This document shows, one piece after another, positions 6,555 to 13,499 of a DNA stretch of 45,612 nucleotides (its first letter is position 1; each line of letters begins with the position of its first letter). Below the pieces are notes generated by a model. It worked only from the letters and a program-made list of their open reading frames with translations, was not told where the DNA came from and did no database searches. The translations under genes and the position numbers were made by a program. This DNA comes from a virus (Duplodnaviria; Heunggongvirae; Uroviricota; Caudoviricetes): positions 1 through 45,612 of IMG/VR virus record IMGVR_UViG_3300028805_001692. The stretch is one strand, 5' to 3'.

Positions 6555-8615
6555 TTAGAACATGTATTTAACCGACACGAAGAAATTCGTTGGGGCATCT
6601 GGCATATAGAGTGGCTTACCAGTATTTGACAGCACACCAGTCTGGATGTTATCACGGTTGGTGATGTTGTTGAGGTGTCCGCTAATAAGGAAGTTACTCA
6701 GTTTCACACTACCGTATAAATTAAGCTGCCATAGGTCTGGAACTGTAAACTCGTTATCCAAGTCGAGATACATATGACTTCGATACTTGTACTCAAGACC
6801 AAACGACCACATCTTATCACGCCACTCAACAGACTGGTTAAACGTACATCCTGGGGTAAGTACATGTGTCTTAGTACCATATACATCCGTCTTAATTTTG
6901 TTGTTCGAATAGGATGAGTTGTTAATGAAGTGAAGCTTGTCAATCGGCTCATAATCGAAATATAACTCAATACCCATACGATGACTGTTGTCTGCCTTCT
7001 CGTGCTCTGGTAGACCGTTTAAGCCAAGTGTACCTGTCAGTGAACGCTCGTTCTCGAAAATCATGGCAAACAGGTTAAGGTTGGCATTCAGTCGCTTAGT
7101 GGCAATGTTCCAACCAAGCTCGAAGTCATTTGATACCTCAGCATCTGTTGTTGTGAGAGAACCTGGATACCACTCATTACCACCGAACATGTCTGTACGT
7201 GTAGGTTCACGGTGAGCACGTGCATACTTGAAATAAGCCTCATTGTGTTTGTTGAACTTATAACTAGCATCAGCACCAAAGTTAAAGAAATTCCACTTTG
7301 TATCCTCGTCGAACTTAACAAGCGGGTTCATAAGGTCACAATACCAGAAGTTAACGCCACGATACTGTCCATTGGCTGATAATGTAAGTCCACCGAATGA
7401 TTTCTTAATATTGGCGAATAACTCATAATCCATCTTATGGCCACGATTATCGTAATACTCTGATGGGTCGATGTTACGTGCCTTATCGATGTTGCGTTCG
7501 TCAAGGTAGTGCTCACGCTCGAACTTATAGATATTAGTCCCTACCGTAATAGAACCATTGTCGATGTAATATCGTGCTGCTGCATTACCGCCATACATAT
7601 GCTGCTTAAGACCGTAGTTATACAACATTCCAGTCTCAATAGGTTCATCACACAGTCGAAGCATATAGTTGTCAAGGTCGAAACGATATTCACCAAGCAG
7701 CATGTTCCAATATAATGAAGAGGTAAACAATACCTTATCACTAAACCATCCGTTATATGTGAACTTATTTACAGTCTGAAAGAAATTATCGTCCTCGTCC
7801 TTGGTACAGCCATTTATCTTACGGTTCTTACTCAGTTCCTCCATAGTAGCACCAATGTATCCCTGCCCATTACGATGGTATCCTGTAATCGATAGAAAAT
7901 CCACAGAACTCTTATCGTTAATGAAGTAACCAAGCTTGAGACCAAGTGACTGCGAGTTATTCGAACTATGCTCACGATAACCATCAGTCTGTGATTGAGT
8001 GGCACGAACATGTAATGCCCACTTACCCATGAGTCCTGTATTAATGTTGGCAGATGTCTTGAATGAATAGAAACTACCAGCACCGAACTCCGCATAAGAC
8101 GTAGTATTCTTCAGTAGGTCAACAGAGCTGATGTTGATACTTCCGCCATACGATGCAGTTCCTGGGTTATAGGTACTTGTACCACGTCCTACATCAATTG
8201 TACCAGCATCTGCCATAATATCTGGGCTGTTGGCAAAGTAACAACCAAAGTCCTCAGCCTCATTCCAGGGCATACCATCCAACGTAACATTGATACGTGT
8301 CTGGTCTAATCCACGAATACGGAAATAACCATAACCGAAGTCAGTGCCGTTGTCGCTGAAAGCAAAGATGGAAGGCATCTGAGCAAACAACCAGGAAGGC
8401 TCTTGACCATAGTTGCTGGAGAGGATTACCTCAGAGTTGATAGTACTTCCAAGCATCGGGGCTGCATTCCGATAGAAGGAGGTGACGGTAAACTCGTCCA
8501 GTGTCTGGTTAATTAACGTATCAGTACTCTCGATTCCATCAACGTTGTCGATGGGGTCAGCGTATGACATGGTTGCCATTGCCATACACATAAACAAACA
8601 GATAAACTTTTTCAT
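6555..8615 (-). CDS. TonB-dependent outer-membrane receptor
   Basis: Signal peptide; plug motif FRIRGLDQTRINVTLDGMPWNEAED; C-terminal VSVKYMF beta-signal. The plug resembles, from recall, Bacteroides vitamin (thiamine-type) receptors. Confidence 0.85.
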   Translation of the reverse strand: MKKFICLFMCMAMATMSYADPIDNVDGIESTDTLINQTLDEFTVTSFYRNAAPMLGSTINSEVILSSNYGQEPSWLFAQMPSIFAFSDNGTDFGYGYFRIRGLDQTRINVTLDGMPWNEAEDFGCYFANSPDIMADAGTIDVGRGTSTYNPGTASYGGSINISSVDLLKNTTSYAEFGAGSFYSFKTSANINTGLMGKWALHVRATQSQTDGYREHSSNNSQSLGLKLGYFINDKSSVDFLSITGYHRNGQGYIGATMEELSKNRKINGCTKDEDDNFFQTVNKFTYNGWFSDKVLFTSSLYWNMLLGEYRFDLDNYMLRLCDEPIETGMLYNYGLKQHMYGGNAAARYYIDNGSITVGTNIYKFEREHYLDERNIDKARNIDPSEYYDNRGHKMDYELFANIKKSFGGLTLSANGQYRGVNFWYCDLMNPLVKFDEDTKWNFFNFGADASYKFNKHNEAYFKYARAHREPTRTDMFGGNEWYPGSLTTTDAEVSNDFELGWNIATKRLNANLNLFAMIFENERSLTGTLGLNGLPEHEKADNSHRMGIELYFDYEPIDKLHFINNSSYSNNKIKTDVYGTKTHVLTPGCTFNQSVEWRDKMWSFGLEYKYRSHMYLDLDNEFTVPDLWQLNLYGSVKLSNFLISGHLNNITNRDNIQTGVLSNTGKPLYMPDAPTNFFVSVKYMF

Positions 8616-9180: not shown

Positions 9181-9447
9181 TTATTTCTCTTTTAAAAATT
9201 TGTCAACCATACTTTCAAGACCACGTTCAAGACGATAGTTCTCATAGTTAATCAATGAGTCGATTGGGTTAGAGTCCTCACAGTCCTCAAGGTCAGTGTC
9301 GTTTATAACAGCCTCCTTGTACTCTTTATAAGTCCATGAGTTCTTACCTATCTTAGGACGCATCAGAGCTGGTGCATTCTCACCATGCTTCTTTATCTCC
9401 TTCTCTATACTAATGAGTAGAATCTTTTTTGCTTGTTCTCTAGTCAT
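9181..9447 (-). CDS. Hypothetical protein (start MTREQAKK)
   Basis: First ATG downstream of the promoter at 9467-9498. Confidence 0.65.
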   Translation of the reverse strand: MTREQAKKILLISIEKEIKKHGENAPALMRPKIGKNSWTYKEYKEAVINDTDLEDCEDSNPIDSLINYENYRLERGLESMVDKFLKEK

Positions 9448-9466
9448 AGCTGTATGATTTTGGTTG

Positions 9467-9508
9467 CAAAGATACACAAAAAAATCGAGATAACCAAATA
9501 TTATCTCG
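9467..9508 (-). terminator. Terminator closing the iscB-array transcript, fused to the next host-type promoter
   Basis: Inverted repeat CGAGATAA/TTATCTCG (9486-9508) plus U tract on the minus strand; -33 TTTG 9498-9495, -7 TATCTTTG 9474-9467. Confidence 0.8.
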
Positions 9509-9524
9509 GTTTTTAAAAAAAATT

Positions 9525-10259
9525 AACTAATAATGATACAATATACGTCTTGGATGAATTGAAATTTTGCCGATTTCGAGATACAAGTGTATAATGCTAC
9601 CGCATCAAAGAAAAGGACTGGCTGGAGTATCCTCAAAATTATATTGGTATGTGTGGGAAAGTTGGATTTTAAACAAAACTAATAGTGATACAATTCGGAT
9701 GTTGTCATCGTCATGAGTCCTAAAAGAAGGATAAGCTGGAAAAGTTATTTGACGAAGTAATATATTCCAAAACTAGTATCTAAGATTCACCCTCCTAAAA
9801 TAAATAGTAGGATTTTAAACAAAACTAATAGTGATACAATTTGCTGAGCGCACAGGTTCACTTGAAATCGGTATTAGTAAACAGTAGCTGTTCAACCGAA
9901 GCGAACCGCATAATAATAATAACTAATAATGATACAATGGCATACTGCTTCCGCATATCCGCCTCACTAAATAGATAGTAGACTTTTGAATAAAACTAAT
10001 AATGATACAATGCAGTCTTATACGAGTTAAAAGCTCACGCTAGGCGTGAGCATTAACATCAACACGTTGAATCCCAATGGGGTAGTAGGCTTTTGAACAA
10101 AACTAATAGTGATACAATTGACAGGTTTCAGAAGTTAATTCTATATTCTTCGTCATCGGTTCAGTCATACCCTTCAATATCCGTCTTCGCATCATTTGGT
10201 TCTGCCTTTCTTATAATATTGGTTCACCACATAATCATAGAAACTAATAATGATACAAC
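9525..10259 (-). CRISPR. Non-canonical CRISPR-like array: 7 repeats, long irregular spacers, associated with IscB
   Basis: 18-nt core ATTGTATCA(C/T)TATTAGTT (minus strand) at 9525-42, 9677-94, 9823-40, 9921-38, 9994-10011, 10101-18 and 10242-59 (last copy starts with G). Four copies extend to about 36 nt (...TTTT(G/A)TT(C/T)AAAA(G/T)(C/T)C(T/A)ACT). Core-to-core gaps 134, 128, 80, 55, 89, 123 nt, all unique. Confidence 0.85.
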
Positions 10260-10272
10260 CCTAATTTCCATC

Positions 10273-11547
10273 TTAATCATGAGTGAACTGAAGCAGATAA
10301 CTTCCATGCATCCTTCTTAAGAATCTCACATCAGAAGTTCTTACTGTAAATGGAGTCATTTTACCTTTTGCATTTGGCTTTCTTGTGACATAATTACCGT
10401 TAATATCCTTTAAGTACACTCTCCCATTTGAACTTCCACTAATAAAACACTTAATTCCGTTCCATAGAACAAGGTCTCTTTTCTGTAAACCACTATTACC
10501 TATCATATGGGAAGTTGTTTCAGCTTTACGTATACCTCCCTTTTGAGGAACTTGCCTATGTAAAGACCTAGTATGCCTTCTGTTAAGCTTATACTGGTAG
10601 AATCCACCAAGTCTGTCAGCCTCCAGGTTACCAGTCATGACAAATGCATCGCTAGTATGGGACTTCTCAATCCCACCCCTTAAGCGGTTAGCTTTGGTTA
10701 TGTAACCATACGTAGTATTAACATTGCCATATAGCTCTTTTACTTTCCAGAACACGGGTTTACCGATTGTCGATACTGATGTTTGGTTTTTGAAACTAGT
10801 AAGCTTTTTCACATTAAGTTCAAATTCACCATTATGTAGCTTCTTATGACAATCCTCACACAATGTGATAAGATTCCCAACCGCATCAGTACCGCCTTGT
10901 GACCTATATTGAATGTGGTGTACGTGAAGTGTTTCGCACCCACTTTCTCCGTGACAATGCTGGCACTCGTGTCTATCCCTAATTAAAACATACTCTCTGG
11001 CGTTTTCAAACCCAAACAATTCACCATGCTGGTACTCCTCACCTTGAATATCTGGATTCTGTAGTTTCTGAATATCAAACGGAGCAATTTCAATGGTTAT
11101 GTTAGAAACAGGCAGAATCTTATGGACACGCTGAATGGCTTTCATGTGTTCGTCAAACCTATTCCTTGATGTAGGGGTTAACCATCCATTTGGTCTTTTC
11201 CTATTATCAAAACGTGGTTTTCTGTACCTAGTCTTTCTGTTACGTCTAGTACTCCTAGATTCACGCCTAGAAAGTATAAGACCTGGAATCTCTTTACTGC
11301 GAAGTTCTACTTGAGCAGCATAAAGTTCTTTAGAAGATGTTGATGCAGATAAACCTATATACCTAGAACCAGTATCAACCCCCAGATTTATTTCTTGGAG
11401 GTTCTCGCCAGAAACATAGTCAAGCTGGATTGTAAAAGGAACGGTAGAAACCACGTGGGCTTTACCTTCCTTCAAAAGTCTCCTAACTTTTCCATGCCTT
11501 GTTGTTGGCATTATAGGCTTGCCATCCTTGTTTAATACGTAAACCAT
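10273..11547 (-). CDS. iscB: IscB RNA-guided endonuclease (OMEGA), 424 aa
   Basis: PLMP domain (MVYVLNKDGKPIMP); RuvC-I GVDTG; Arg-rich bridge helix; RuvC-II IEIAPFD; HNH with CxxC...HHI...NL..LC..CH; RuvC-III SHTSDA. Catalytic motifs appear intact. Confidence 0.92.
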   Translation of the reverse strand: MVYVLNKDGKPIMPTTRHGKVRRLLKEGKAHVVSTVPFTIQLDYVSGENLQEINLGVDTGSRYIGLSASTSSKELYAAQVELRSKEIPGLILSRRESRSTRRNRKTRYRKPRFDNRKRPNGWLTPTSRNRFDEHMKAIQRVHKILPVSNITIEIAPFDIQKLQNPDIQGEEYQHGELFGFENAREYVLIRDRHECQHCHGESGCETLHVHHIQYRSQGGTDAVGNLITLCEDCHKKLHNGEFELNVKKLTSFKNQTSVSTIGKPVFWKVKELYGNVNTTYGYITKANRLRGGIEKSHTSDAFVMTGNLEADRLGGFYQYKLNRRHTRSLHRQVPQKGGIRKAETTSHMIGNSGLQKRDLVLWNGIKCFISGSSNGRVYLKDINGNYVTRKPNAKGKMTPFTVRTSDVRFLRRMHGSYLLQFTHD

Positions 11548-11559
11548 TTGTTTAATTTT

Positions 11560-11750
11560 AAAAATGTTATAAACCGTCAAATAAATGACGTTGTGTACCC
11601 ATCGCTAATGTTGGTTGGAGGTTTTCACTAGAAAGACATTCTCGCTAGCCGCAGGGTTTGGGGCTTGGGTAACAACTCCAAAGTGCCTATATATTCTCCC
11701 TCAACGTAGTCCTCGAAGGACTTAAGCTAATCGTATCATATTAGTTTTGT
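11560..11750 (-). ncRNA. Guide-less omegaRNA scaffold with 5' anti-repeat (tracrRNA-like)
   Basis: Directly upstream of iscB, same strand. Omega-RNA-type elements: UUAGCUUAAG-(GUCCU UCG AGGAC)-UACGUU, AUAGGCAC-UUUGGAG...CCCAAGCCCCAAACC-CUGC, AACAUUAGCGAUGGG. The first 21 nt are complementary to the array repeat. 3' end approximate. Confidence 0.8.
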
Positions 11751-11754
11751 GGCG

Positions 11755-11796
11755 CAAAGATATATAAAAAAAACGAGATAACCAAAAGTTATCCCG
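11755..11796 (-). promoter_or_regulatory. Host-type promoter for scaffold-iscB-array, fused to the upstream terminator
   Basis: TTTG 11786-11783, N20, TATCTTTG 11762-11755; predicted TSS about 11748-11750; hairpin 11774-11796. Confidence 0.85.
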
Positions 11797-11817
11797 ATTA
11801 TTAATATTTTTTAACAA

Positions 11818-12276
11818 TTATTCCATCCACCAAGGTTTCAATAAAGCTACAGAATAATTTCCAATTTTTTTATAGACATAAAGAGTCCCAGCAAAATCAT
11901 CATTAAATTCTTCAATAATCATATTCTTCAATTTCCTAGTCCCACAATTACCGAAATATAATCCAGAAATATTTTCAGCAGTATCTGTTAATTCACATTT
12001 ATCACCATTCATGAAAAACCTTAATTCATCTAATTTCTTTTTCTTTTCGTTTTCATCTTGTGCATTTTGGTACTCTTGACGCATTGACTTCAAAGTAAGC
12101 CTATTATCATTCAACACGTCCCCTAACAAATCAGTGCTAATTATGTGCGAAAGACCATTATTTGTCTTGCGTATTTTAATAAGACCATTCTCTATAGCCC
12201 TTTCACATAAATCAACGTCAAACATAAGTTTATTAAAACCGTTTAACTCTTTAAAAAAATCAATATATTCACTCAT
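11818..12276 (-). CDS. Hypothetical AT-rich protein (start MSEYIDFF)
   Basis: First ATG after the promoter at 12295-12325. Confidence 0.6.
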   Translation of the reverse strand: MSEYIDFFKELNGFNKLMFDVDLCERAIENGLIKIRKTNNGLSHIISTDLLGDVLNDNRLTLKSMRQEYQNAQDENEKKKKLDELRFFMNGDKCELTDTAENISGLYFGNCGTRKLKNMIIEEFNDDFAGTLYVYKKIGNYSVALLKPWWME

Positions 12277-12294
12277 AACTCCTATTTTTTTTTG

Positions 12295-12339
12295 CAAAGA
12301 TATATAAAAAAATCGAGATTTCAAAATAAAATCCCGATT
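12295..12339 (-). promoter_or_regulatory. Host-type promoter fused to terminator hairpin
   Basis: TTTG 12325-12322, N19, TATCTTTG 12302-12295; hairpin 12311-12339. Confidence 0.8.
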
Positions 12340-12347
12340 ATGTTCAA

Positions 12348-13499
12348 TTATCTTACAAACAATCCAAGTGGCTTATTCTTTAACACCTTTATAAGCTGGT
12401 CACTCATGTTACTCTGTTTCTCCATTAAGTTCCAAGGTGTCATCCTATCCAACCTCTCCTTAAGTTCATTAAGTACCGTTTCCTTCTCAGACTTACCCTG
12501 TTCAAGAAGCATATTGTAATCCATCTGCATCTCAGCCTCTGGAATCTTCACAGCACCACTGTACGTACCTCTTATAATACCAAGCAGTATCTTAGCCTCA
12601 GCAACAAGTAAACGTCTTATAATCTGTTGTGTTGGATTATTCATCAGCTCATATCTCATCTTATCCAATGGAACTTGGTCTGGTGTTATGATAATGTCAT
12701 CCCTATTTTCAAGCCTACATTGCTCAATATCGTCTGGACTTCCAGATGTATCATAGTATGTATACCACACGTAGCAGCTTGCATACCTATTCCAACCCCA
12801 TGTATCATCAGCAGCAACACCGCCAACCATGTTTGGAGAGCCTGGAACTGAAAGAAGATGTACAAGGTGTGTACCTTCTGGTCCTGCCGTTACCTTATAA
12901 GCCAAGTCACCCCTAAGGAGTGAGTTCTTGTACTTAAGGTCAGCAGCCATAAGAGCCGTATCGTATGCTGAACCCACATAGAATCCTGTAAGTCCAAGTC
13001 CATTACCCATGTTACCATACTGTCCGAATCCACCACCTATACCTGTATCAAGAGTACCCAAGTTACCATAAAGAGCTGCCTTGGTAGTTGATGGGGTAAC
13101 ATACATCACCTTATTAATCTCACGTCCCGCTGGGATTACATATACCTGCTTTCCACGTTCAACCTGGAAGAAATCTTTCTTGAGTTCGTAATGTCCTCTC
13201 TGCTGCAACCCAACCTCACGTGAGAACCAGTATGAGAAATCACGTGACCAGTCCATTGTACGAACGGTCATGGCATATGCCAGTTCGCTTGCATTCTGGA
13301 ACTGTATAACATTCTTGTTCTGCATATTGAGCCACTGTGTCTCTATCACCCAGTTCTGAACCTTCTCAGAGTAGTCACCTATAGCTACGTCCAGGAGGTC
13401 GCACAACTGCTCATCCTCAAGCTGTACGATACGTATAGGAGCACCCAACATCGTTCTCACTGTACGGAATAGTGACTTCATATCTTCTGTTAAAATCAT
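12348..13499 (-). CDS. Neck / head-completion protein (T4 gp13-like)
   Basis: MLGAPIRIVQLEDEQL N-terminus and ...LLEQGKSEKETVLNEL C-terminus parallel gp13. Confidence 0.7.
   Translation of the reverse strand: MILTEDMKSLFRTVRTMLGAPIRIVQLEDEQLCDLLDVAIGDYSEKVQNWVIETQWLNMQNKNVIQFQNASELAYAMTVRTMDWSRDFSYWFSREVGLQQRGHYELKKDFFQVERGKQVYVIPAGREINKVMYVTPSTTKAALYGNLGTLDTGIGGGFGQYGNMGNGLGLTGFYVGSAYDTALMAADLKYKNSLLRGDLAYKVTAGPEGTHLVHLLSVPGSPNMVGGVAADDTWGWNRYASCYVWYTYYDTSGSPDDIEQCRLENRDDIIITPDQVPLDKMRYELMNNPTQQIIRRLLVAEAKILLGIIRGTYSGAVKIPEAEMQMDYNMLLEQGKSEKETVLNELKERLDRMTPWNLMEKQSNMSDQLIKVLKNKPLGLFVR

Follow-up and report, generated by a model that had tools for sequence, protein, structure and literature searches.

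The window analysed here, a stretch of 45,612 nt that forms the first 45.6 kb of the 109.6-kb IMG/VR virus record IMGVR_UViG_3300028805_001692 (CheckV completeness 33%), carries on its minus strand an iscB gene that stands between a guide-less scaffold RNA and an array of seven short repeats. Judging from its sequence, this locus very probably encodes a phage-domesticated IscB that acts, like Cas9, as a nuclease guided by two RNAs. The evidence lies in the anatomy of the locus, its conservation among related phages, the covariation of repeat and anti-repeat, selection on iscB, matches between spacers and chromosomal islands of Prevotella, and a motif that flanks these matches. A preliminary description, made from the letters of the window alone, had proposed a naturally split omegaRNA and a multiplexed two-RNA IscB; the lack of a cis guide, the conserved arrays, the covariation and the spacer targets all support this proposal.

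From 11796 to 9486, the minus strand reads terminator, −7 box, four bases, anti-repeat, structured RNA body, iscB, seven repeats and terminator. The preliminary description had given the same order of promoter box, scaffold, iscB, repeats and terminator, and each part was found where it had been placed. The features, all on the minus strand, are:

11774..11796, minus: intrinsic terminator of the upstream gene (11818-12324), a 10-bp stem followed by a T run
11755..11762, minus: Bacteroidota-type −7 box TATCTTTG (consensus TAnnTTTG), 4 nt before the anti-repeat
11730..11750, minus: anti-repeat of 21 nt with which the scaffold RNA begins (5′ end); complement of the repeats in the array
11565..11729, minus: omegaRNA (HEARO) scaffold body with pseudoknot and stems (Rfam RF02033)
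10273..11547, minus: iscB, 424 amino acids (aa) plus stop, all catalytic residues present
10242..10259, minus: repeat R1 (GTTGTATCATTATTAGTT), core match; its "spacer" consists of the 3′ end of iscB and the 13 nt behind it
10101..10118, minus: repeat R2; candidate guide g2 at about 10119-10134, no target found
9994..10011, minus: repeat R3; guide at about 10012-10027
9921..9938, minus: repeat R4; candidate guide g4 at about 9939-9954, no target found
9823..9840, minus: repeat R5, core match
9677..9694, minus: repeat R6; candidate guide g6 at about 9695-9710, no target found
9525..9542, minus: repeat R7, the last; core match
9486..9508, minus: intrinsic terminator closing the array (hairpin prediction), followed by the promoter box of the next gene (9181-9477)

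Pairing of repeats and anti-repeat

A 17-nt core, TTGTATCAYTATTAGTT, occurs seven times on the minus strand (starts at 10258, 10117, 10010, 9937, 9839, 9693 and 9541) and nowhere else in the 109.6-kb record, in which the reversed control pattern gave 0 matches. R1 begins 13 nt after the iscB stop codon and, because its "spacer" consists of the end of iscB and these 13 nt, probably has no real guide. Seven repeats with unique spacers, beginning about 13 nt after the stop codon, had been claimed before; the count and the distance stood, whereas the first spacer proved to be the iscB tail and three guides could be traced to targets. Repeats measure about 18-22 nt and are spaced 73-152 nt from start to start in the window array. 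Spacers range from 17 to more than 100 nt and are partly fused, the shortest ones in orthologous arrays being 17-25 nt long.

The same layout, with the same neighbour genes, was present in five phage lineages (L001, L002, L043/44, L045-50 and L051), where the array behind iscB counts 3 repeats in L001, 4 in L002, 5 in L051, 9 in L043/L044 and 10 in L045-L048. Inspection of related phages had been suggested in the preliminary description as a check, and all orthologous loci indeed keep the array and carry different spacers.

In the window, repeat and anti-repeat form a duplex of 21 bp with a one-base bulge and an energy of −21.3 kcal/mol (duplexfold), and the bulged base is the only variable position of the core (C or T). 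Comparing the lineages showed that the repeat ends are conserved (ATTGT... and ...TTAGTT) and that the centres differ per lineage (ATCAYTA, ACTAGA, ATCAGA, GTTGT and GTGA), each lineage's anti-repeat being the exact or wobble complement of its own repeat centre. When duplex energies were compared across the lineages, the cognate pair proved to be the most stable in 5/5 lineages (−17.0 to −20.6 vs −4.8 to −16.5 kcal/mol). Repeat and anti-repeat thus covary across five lineages.

Scaffold RNA and IscB protein

The scaffold is encoded directly upstream of the iscB open reading frame (ORF) and matches the Rfam family HEARO (RF02033) at 11590-11782 with 56 bits (E 6e-10, model positions 1-211; gathering score 83). 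HEARO is the omegaRNA family of IscB. The score stays below the gathering score because the 5′ strand of the first stem is missing in the scaffold; the model aligned this strand onto the upstream terminator at low posterior probability. Orthologous scaffolds likewise score below the gathering score, with 52-67 bits across the phage clade. As ordinary relatives we took viral IscBs of 39-46% identity and the nearest database relatives of 52-56% identity: six of them score 78-140 bits, and a seventh, L092, only 63. A guide and a first stem are visible in cis in the closest relatives outside the phages (L090 and L094, 52-56% identity). In the phage clade, the strongest partner that the anti-repeat finds in the 300 nt upstream of it gives −6.8 to −11.3 kcal/mol, compared to −18.8 to −21.9 kcal/mol with the array.

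The exception is L001, the locus of the 412-kb relative, which carries a solitary extra repeat (ATTGTACTAATATTAGTT; L001:3683-3700) on the same strand, about 110 nt upstream of the scaffold promoter. This repeat can pair with the anti-repeat at −17.6 kcal/mol; it could be a guide unit gone astray or have a regulatory role.

Each phage has exactly one HEARO element. The scaffold body is nearly invariant across lineages whose ORFs differ at a synonymous distance (dS) of 0.6-1.8 and shows two compensatory stem changes; beside it lies the anti-repeat region, 22 nt that are different in each lineage. The scaffold body ends in a small conserved hairpin and a U-rich stretch, with some 20-40 nt left to the ATG of iscB. 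In the window as in all orthologs, the same −7 box precedes the anti-repeat at a distance of only 4-9 nt, too short for a guide to be encoded in cis. The published Bacteroides consensus makes TATCTTTG a putative promoter, and transcription would begin with the first anti-repeat bases, about 4-6 nt downstream of the box (~11750). A guide-less, omegaRNA-like scaffold that opens with an anti-repeat had been described before, together with the remark that a 5′ guide of its own would speak against two RNAs; the HEARO match lacks both guide and 5′ stem strand, and the near position of the box and the missing upstream partner agree with this at the sequence level.

The iscB ORF spans 10273-11580, with the ATG at 11547 and the stop codon at 10275-10273. 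Its 424-aa product matches the Pfam families RRXRR (5e-62) and HNH (1.5e-10), and its best solved relatives are OgeuIscB-type chains (1e-56, PDB alignment). The architecture is that of an IscB, with PLMP/RRXRR, a RuvC domain split by HNH, a bridge helix and a C-terminal region for interaction with the target-adjacent motif (TAM), whereas Cas9 chains align only at residues ~112-236, the HNH/RuvC core (1e-10). The RuvC residues D, E and H..D, the HNH residues H-H..N..H and the CxxC..CxxC zinc site could all be aligned and are present, so that the intact RuvC/HNH motifs noted earlier now extend to every catalytic residue of OgeuIscB-type structures. Among clade lineages, the ratio of nonsynonymous to synonymous change (dN/dS) of iscB is 0.07-0.09 at dS 0.6-1.8; the gene, including both nuclease sites, is under strong purifying selection.

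Spacer targets and flank motif

Four rumen metatranscriptome runs carry the locus as contigs. Because such contigs reveal neither ends nor strand nor level of a transcript and DNA carry-over is possible, these were not counted as evidence of expression, and stretches without cover carry no meaning. In some of the RNA-library contigs, the sequence agrees with a spacer as far as the repeat's first base, beyond which it is foreign. Searching JGI metagenomes with such foreign flanks led to 14 contigs, in all of which the spacer-3 sequence precedes the flank. The matched spacers and the flanks of their targets are:

10011..10063, minus: spacer 3, repeat-proximal 53 nt including the repeat's first A; match in Prevotella islands, target flank AAGG
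9841..9907, minus: spacer 5, two fused fragments with matches in island genes; target flank TAAG, and CAAG for the relic within this spacer
9542..9594, minus: spacer 7, repeat-proximal part; match in RNA-library contigs with the non-phage flanks AGGG or AAGG
Phage L045, spacer g3: target flank AAAG
Phage L045, spacer g10: target flank GGAG

The spacer-3 segment is identical (53/53 nt) in the rumen metagenome contigs L054, L058, L061, L063 and L065, and the other nine contigs show a few base or indel differences, mostly in the hairpin loop. Its site lies just downstream of an integrase gene in Prevotella islands. It also occurs in three species-representative metagenome-assembled genomes labelled Prevotella or Prevotellaceae, and diverged sequence (77-93% identity) was found in about 19 of the 401 Prevotellaceae species genomes searched. 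In spacer 5, a WYL_2-domain gene of L061 agrees at 34/35 nt with the part next to R5 (9841-9875); the part at 9873-9907 matches another island gene in L054 and L058 at 91% and is a relic guide whose repeat was lost. The spacer-7 contigs with loose ends at 9542 were read as assembly joins of phage and target because the loose end at 10011 had proved to be the flank of the spacer-3 target. In the sister phage L045, two spacers match an HNH_3 endonuclease gene (29-30/30 nt, 100%) and a small ORF (18/18 nt, 100%) in L052, so that two phage lineages carry different spacers against one family of islands.

The target contigs are bacterial chromosomes, and the islands, of about 6-15 kb, sit between housekeeping genes (carB, an iron alcohol dehydrogenase, RNase R, a PfkB kinase, GH97, PhoH, purC, uvrB and a GH5 cellulase). 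They encode tyrosine integrases, a serine resolvase, the HNH_3 endonuclease, a DnaD-like loader, an AAA_25 helicase and many small ORFs, and their cargo, which varies, comprises Zn-ribbon, WG-repeat, Sel1, beta-flower and lipocalin-like proteins; one contig also has a tRNA-Ser gene at a distance of 1.6 kb from the protospacer. No virion genes were seen in the island parts examined, and an Rfam search of the target islands gave no known RNA at the protospacers. We read the islands as integrative mobile elements, which could be satellites, prophage remnants or defence islands, and rumen Prevotella is the likely host of the phage. Competing phages, mobile elements or host defence genes had been named beforehand as likely targets; this was borne out in part, by the matches to mobile islands of Prevotella.

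No 30-nt guide matched elsewhere in the 109.6-kb record or in the loci of relatives, and the window array had no spacer-length match in the 412-kb and 76-kb relatives. Exact scans of IMG/VR found nothing for the spacer-3 guide plus flank, for the target flank alone or for 20-mers of g2, g4, g6 and g7, which places the targets outside those viral contigs. BLAST of the L045 array against the 401 Prevotellaceae genomes gave marginal hits only, in a search of low sensitivity that scored two candidates per genome, and the g4 20-mer with up to 2 mismatches gave 6 matches in these genomes vs 2 for the reversed control, which is chance level.

In every protospacer match, identity ends exactly at the junction of spacer and repeat. 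At the flank position, where the targets share the pattern N-R-R-G (R, purine), the array itself reads ATTG. Six independent sites would all show R-R-G by chance with a probability of ~3e-8, before correcting for the choice of motif. On this pattern, N-R-R-G is probably the 3′ TAM, and the difference between N-R-R-G in targets and ATTG in the array is what a 3′ TAM with self-discrimination would look like. The motif is provisional because the six sites were pooled from two orthologs.

These matches bear on two other explanations. If the repeats were regulatory or decoy elements, the array RNA would sequester or destabilise the 5′ end of the scaffold or tune iscB translation, and the spacers would serve as filler. 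One transcript may indeed include scaffold, ORF and array, as no terminator was predicted between 11774 and 10051 (scaffold, ORF and array start), and covariation demonstrates pairing alone, which a regulatory duplex would also keep. Regulation would, however, leave unexplained why exact copies of Prevotella island sequence abut the repeats and share an N-R-R-G flank, and why two lineages carry different spacers against the same island family, and it would leave the scaffold without a guide although both nuclease sites are under strong purifying selection. We consider it very unlikely.

Alternatively, IscB could be RNA-guided but serve host takeover, through chromosome breakage, shut-off or nucleotide release, or serve recombination with islands via homologous spacers. 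The chromosomal position of the protospacers, the spread of spacer-3-like sequence among Prevotellaceae species and the up to 53 nt of homology in spacers would fit. On the other hand, all five protospacers located in the retrieved DNA lie in islands with recombinase and replication genes that occur in a minority of genomes and are thus poor handles for general host shut-off; the homology is one-sided, the other side being the repeat; and one island family has become the target of two lineages by convergence, a pattern known from phage-satellite conflicts. Such a role is unlikely in our view.

Array turnover and missing adaptation genes

No spacers are common to the arrays of different lineages. 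The arrays of L002 and L051 differ in one internal unit, and an RNA-library run (X4) contains an array variant in which the first units are replaced, while L043 and L044, and likewise L045 and L046, have identical arrays although each pair comes from different samples. Cas1 and Cas2 (PF01867 and PF09827) were absent from the genomes G000 and G002 and from the complete 412-kb relative G001, with control genomes positive; a Y1 transposase (TnpA) was not found in this complete relative, and no transposon ends were found at the iscB locus. The lack of adaptation and transposase genes and the long irregular spacers, both remarked on earlier, are thus upheld, the latter by the variable spacing and by captured fragments of up to 53 nt. 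The spacers are long captured fragments (up to 53 nt) together with fused relics of older units, which explains their irregular lengths and argues for gain and loss by recombination and not by the Cas1 route.

We also considered whether the locus is a decaying IscB element of the IS200/IS605 type, whose repeats would be scrambled transposon ends or remnants of repeated insertions with no present function. The missing TnpA, the irregular spacers and the HEARO score below the gathering score are what such decay would leave. It is hard to reconcile with a dN/dS of ~0.08 over dS up to 1.8 and an invariant scaffold, with the same position of the locus in five lineages and five changes of repeat and anti-repeat in step, or with the turnover of spacers (one unit between L002 and L051, and the variant in run X4), and we regard decay as extremely unlikely.

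Proposed mechanism

For RNA processing, ribonucleoprotein assembly, cleavage, guide length and benefit to the phage, we infer the following course. A host-type promoter would start the scaffold RNA, whose first 21 nt are the anti-repeat, and the RNA would either stop ahead of the ATG, at the hairpin with its U-rich stretch, or extend across iscB into the array. The missing strand of the first stem would be supplied in trans by any of the 18-22-nt repeats behind iscB. The 3′ end of a spacer with its repeat would then correspond to a CRISPR RNA (crRNA) and the scaffold to a trans-activating crRNA (tracrRNA), paired over 16-21 bp and trimmed by host RNases. IscB would use about the last 16 nt of the spacer as guide, and the loaded protein would cut matching DNA with a 3′ TAM of approximately N-R-R-G; the array itself would be safe because its repeat reads ATTG at this position. 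During infection, the phage would thereby cut resident Prevotella islands and hence the chromosome, probably disabling a satellite-like or defence-carrying element. This anti-satellite or anti-defence role is possible but somewhat doubtful. New guides would arise without Cas1-Cas2, through capture of long fragments next to a TAM and through loss or fusion of units.

Several points weigh against this course. L051 pairs an anti-repeat of the L001 type with an array of the L002 type, with one C.A mismatch and only −13.6 kcal/mol; this 3.4-kb metagenome contig may be a recombinant or an assembly chimera. The repeat:anti-repeat duplex is short and AU-rich (16-21 bp), and a predicted terminator inside spacer 3, 17 nt before R3, could stop read-through into R3-R7. 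Targets were traced for only three of the window's six real spacers, and the TAM was deduced from a pool of six protospacers that belong to two IscB orthologs with 79% identity to each other. Contigs assembled from RNA libraries are blind to RNA ends, strand and processing.

The terminator in question is an intrinsic hairpin at 10051-10033 that was copied from the Prevotella island. A second feature within the array is TAGTTTTG, a TAnnTTTG match inside the C-variant repeats R2, R5 and R6 (10105, 9827 and 9681, minus strand). Repeats of type II-C CRISPR systems carry their own start sites, and the units R2, R5 and R6 might likewise have their own transcription starts and restart transcription. 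As a general mechanism, promoters inside repeats were rejected because orthologous repeats lack TAGTTTTG.

Relation to known systems

CRISPR-associated IscBs with repeat/anti-repeat RNAs have been published (PMC12660989, PMC10734277), so that the preliminary description overstated the novelty of the locus. Several small branches of IscB were linked to arrays independently (PMC10734277), and in the CRISPR-associated IscBs of Altae-Tran et al. 2021 (Science 374:57; as covered in PMC12660989, PMC10734277 and PMC11610941), of which DelIscB is an example, adaptation genes are often absent. With these proteins the phage IscB shares a size of ~400-460 aa, the lack of a recognition (REC) lobe and a scaffold anti-repeat that pairs with nearby array repeats. 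The noncoding RNA of DelIscB contains spacers, repeats and anti-repeat upstream of the ORF, its processing into two RNAs being stated as still to be shown (PMC12660989); the upstream array runs straight into anti-repeat and scaffold, which allows the last repeat to form a hairpin by back-folding, much as in a natural single guide (PMC12660989). In contrast, the phage array lies downstream of iscB, ~1.5 kb from the anti-repeat and behind the ORF, which would require pairing in trans or at very long range. It further differs from DelIscB in its lack of CRISPR-like regular spacing, with short repeats (~18-22 nt) and irregular spacers, in its carrier, a ~400-kb rumen phage, and in its natural protospacers with a flank motif. 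The candidate TAM resembles the purine core of NWRRNA, the OgeuIscB motif as quoted in PMC12660989. Protein architecture and catalytic residues are also like those of OgeuIscB (PDB 7UTN/7XHT), and the scaffold fits HEARO from the 3′ strand of the first stem onward. Unlike transposon IscBs, the locus has no guide in cis, no 5′ strand of the first stem and neither TnpA nor transposon ends, and it combines multiplexed guides with a fixed place among the phage genes.

Type II CRISPR-Cas9 uses a tracrRNA:crRNA pair that matures through RNase III. The phage locus resembles it in the order of tracr-like RNA, nuclease and array, in the polarity of spacer (5′) and repeat (3′), in the anti-repeat at the 5′ end of the tracr-like RNA and in a 3′ motif (protospacer-adjacent motif or TAM), but Cas9 has a REC lobe and ~700 aa or more, whereas the phage IscB has 424 aa and no REC lobe, no cas1, cas2 or csn2 accompany it, and its spacers are irregular. 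Seed and co-workers reportedly described in 2013 a type I-F CRISPR of the Vibrio phage ICP1 that is directed against the host-resident satellite PLE. As in this pair, and as in huge phages with CRISPR-CasPhi, a large or lytic phage here carries its own RNA-guided nuclease, with spacers that match a mobile island in the host chromosome. Unlike in ICP1 and PLE, the effector is an IscB without adaptation module, and the Prevotella islands are only candidates for satellites or defence islands.

Our literature search found no description of this type of locus. It is set apart from the published cases by the array downstream of the gene and away from the scaffold, the very short repeats, the irregular spacers, the five-fold covariation series, the ~400-kb rumen phage as carrier and the natural protospacers with their flank motif. 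Cas9 is accepted to descend from IscB, and for the origin of crRNA and tracrRNA from one omegaRNA the phage clade offers a natural case, in which the nuclease gene separates the two RNA halves so that a split is hardly avoidable. More speculatively, the clade may be a living intermediate between omegaRNA and the crRNA:tracrRNA of Cas9, with guide gain free of Cas1-Cas2, a duplex under diversifying co-evolution and islands that are satellites of jumbo phages or defence islands. Guides would then be gained as TAM-flanked fragments of rival elements, tens of nt long, that are joined to a short repeat, and repeat loss would fuse units; the duplex might diverge to avoid cross-talk between co-infecting phages or to escape island RNA decoys that mimic repeats. 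Taken as a whole, we find this view tentative and rather unlikely.

The five co-varying pairing helices are ready-made compensatory mutants, and natural targets with a candidate TAM lend themselves to straightforward biochemical tests. The locus also presents an array that is kept without Cas1-Cas2, and it suggests that rumen phages of ~400 kb and small mobile islands of Prevotella are engaged in a so far unstudied conflict. For genome-editing tools, this 424-aa nuclease is of interest as it combines a short candidate TAM with a naturally multiplexed two-part guide.

Carrier phages and further observations

A close relative of the window phage (G001) is a complete phage of 412.5 kb, and the genes around the iscB locus are of phage type, encoding a gp13-like neck protein, NrdD/NrdG and a DnaB-type helicase. 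Sequencing runs that contain the window stretch come from sheep and cattle gut, and blastn of 9300-12400 against the GenBank phage collection gave no match. Within the IscB protein family, the phage clade is tight, at 79-100% identity, and separated by a gap from the next relatives at ≤56%. In all clade members with DNA, the locus sits between the gp13-like gene and a gene with a TonB/Plug domain; its position is fixed and syntenic, and iscB is inherited vertically at this place in the phage genome. The latter neighbour is a full-length TonB-dependent-receptor-like gene with Plug domain (window 6555-8615), 1-2 kb downstream of the array. Its presence in all orthologous phage loci marks it as stable phage cargo and not as a contaminating host fragment.

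Some target sites deviate from the others close to the junction. In L057, one nucleotide is missing from the final bases of the spacer-3 protospacer, and L059 has two mismatches and a GTAG flank at the site of L045 spacer g10; both could be escape variants. Several Prevotellaceae genomes contain, behind a TAnnTTTG box, 21-25 nt that match the 5′ part of spacer 7 (9559-9583) at 96-100% identity. These sites (L083:1480-1535 in G387:C75 and five other Prevotellaceae genomes) lie in unrelated surroundings, and the L083 match does not extend. A WYL_2-domain gene was also found upstream of an ordinary IscB relative (L090:245-601, 56% identity); the spacer-5 target in L061 (3122-3475) is likewise a WYL_2 gene.

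Cassettes of a T run and TAnnTTTG occur 16 times in the 109.6-kb record, compared to 2.2 expected, and look like the standard gene punctuation of the phage. Two such terminator-plus-promoter cassettes, at 9466-9532 and 11754-11820, bracket the IscB module and are 78% identical over 67 nt. Each consists of a hairpin CGrGATAAC..GTTATCyCG, a T run and then TATCTTTG (repeat family D3), and the pair may mark the IscB module as an inserted unit.

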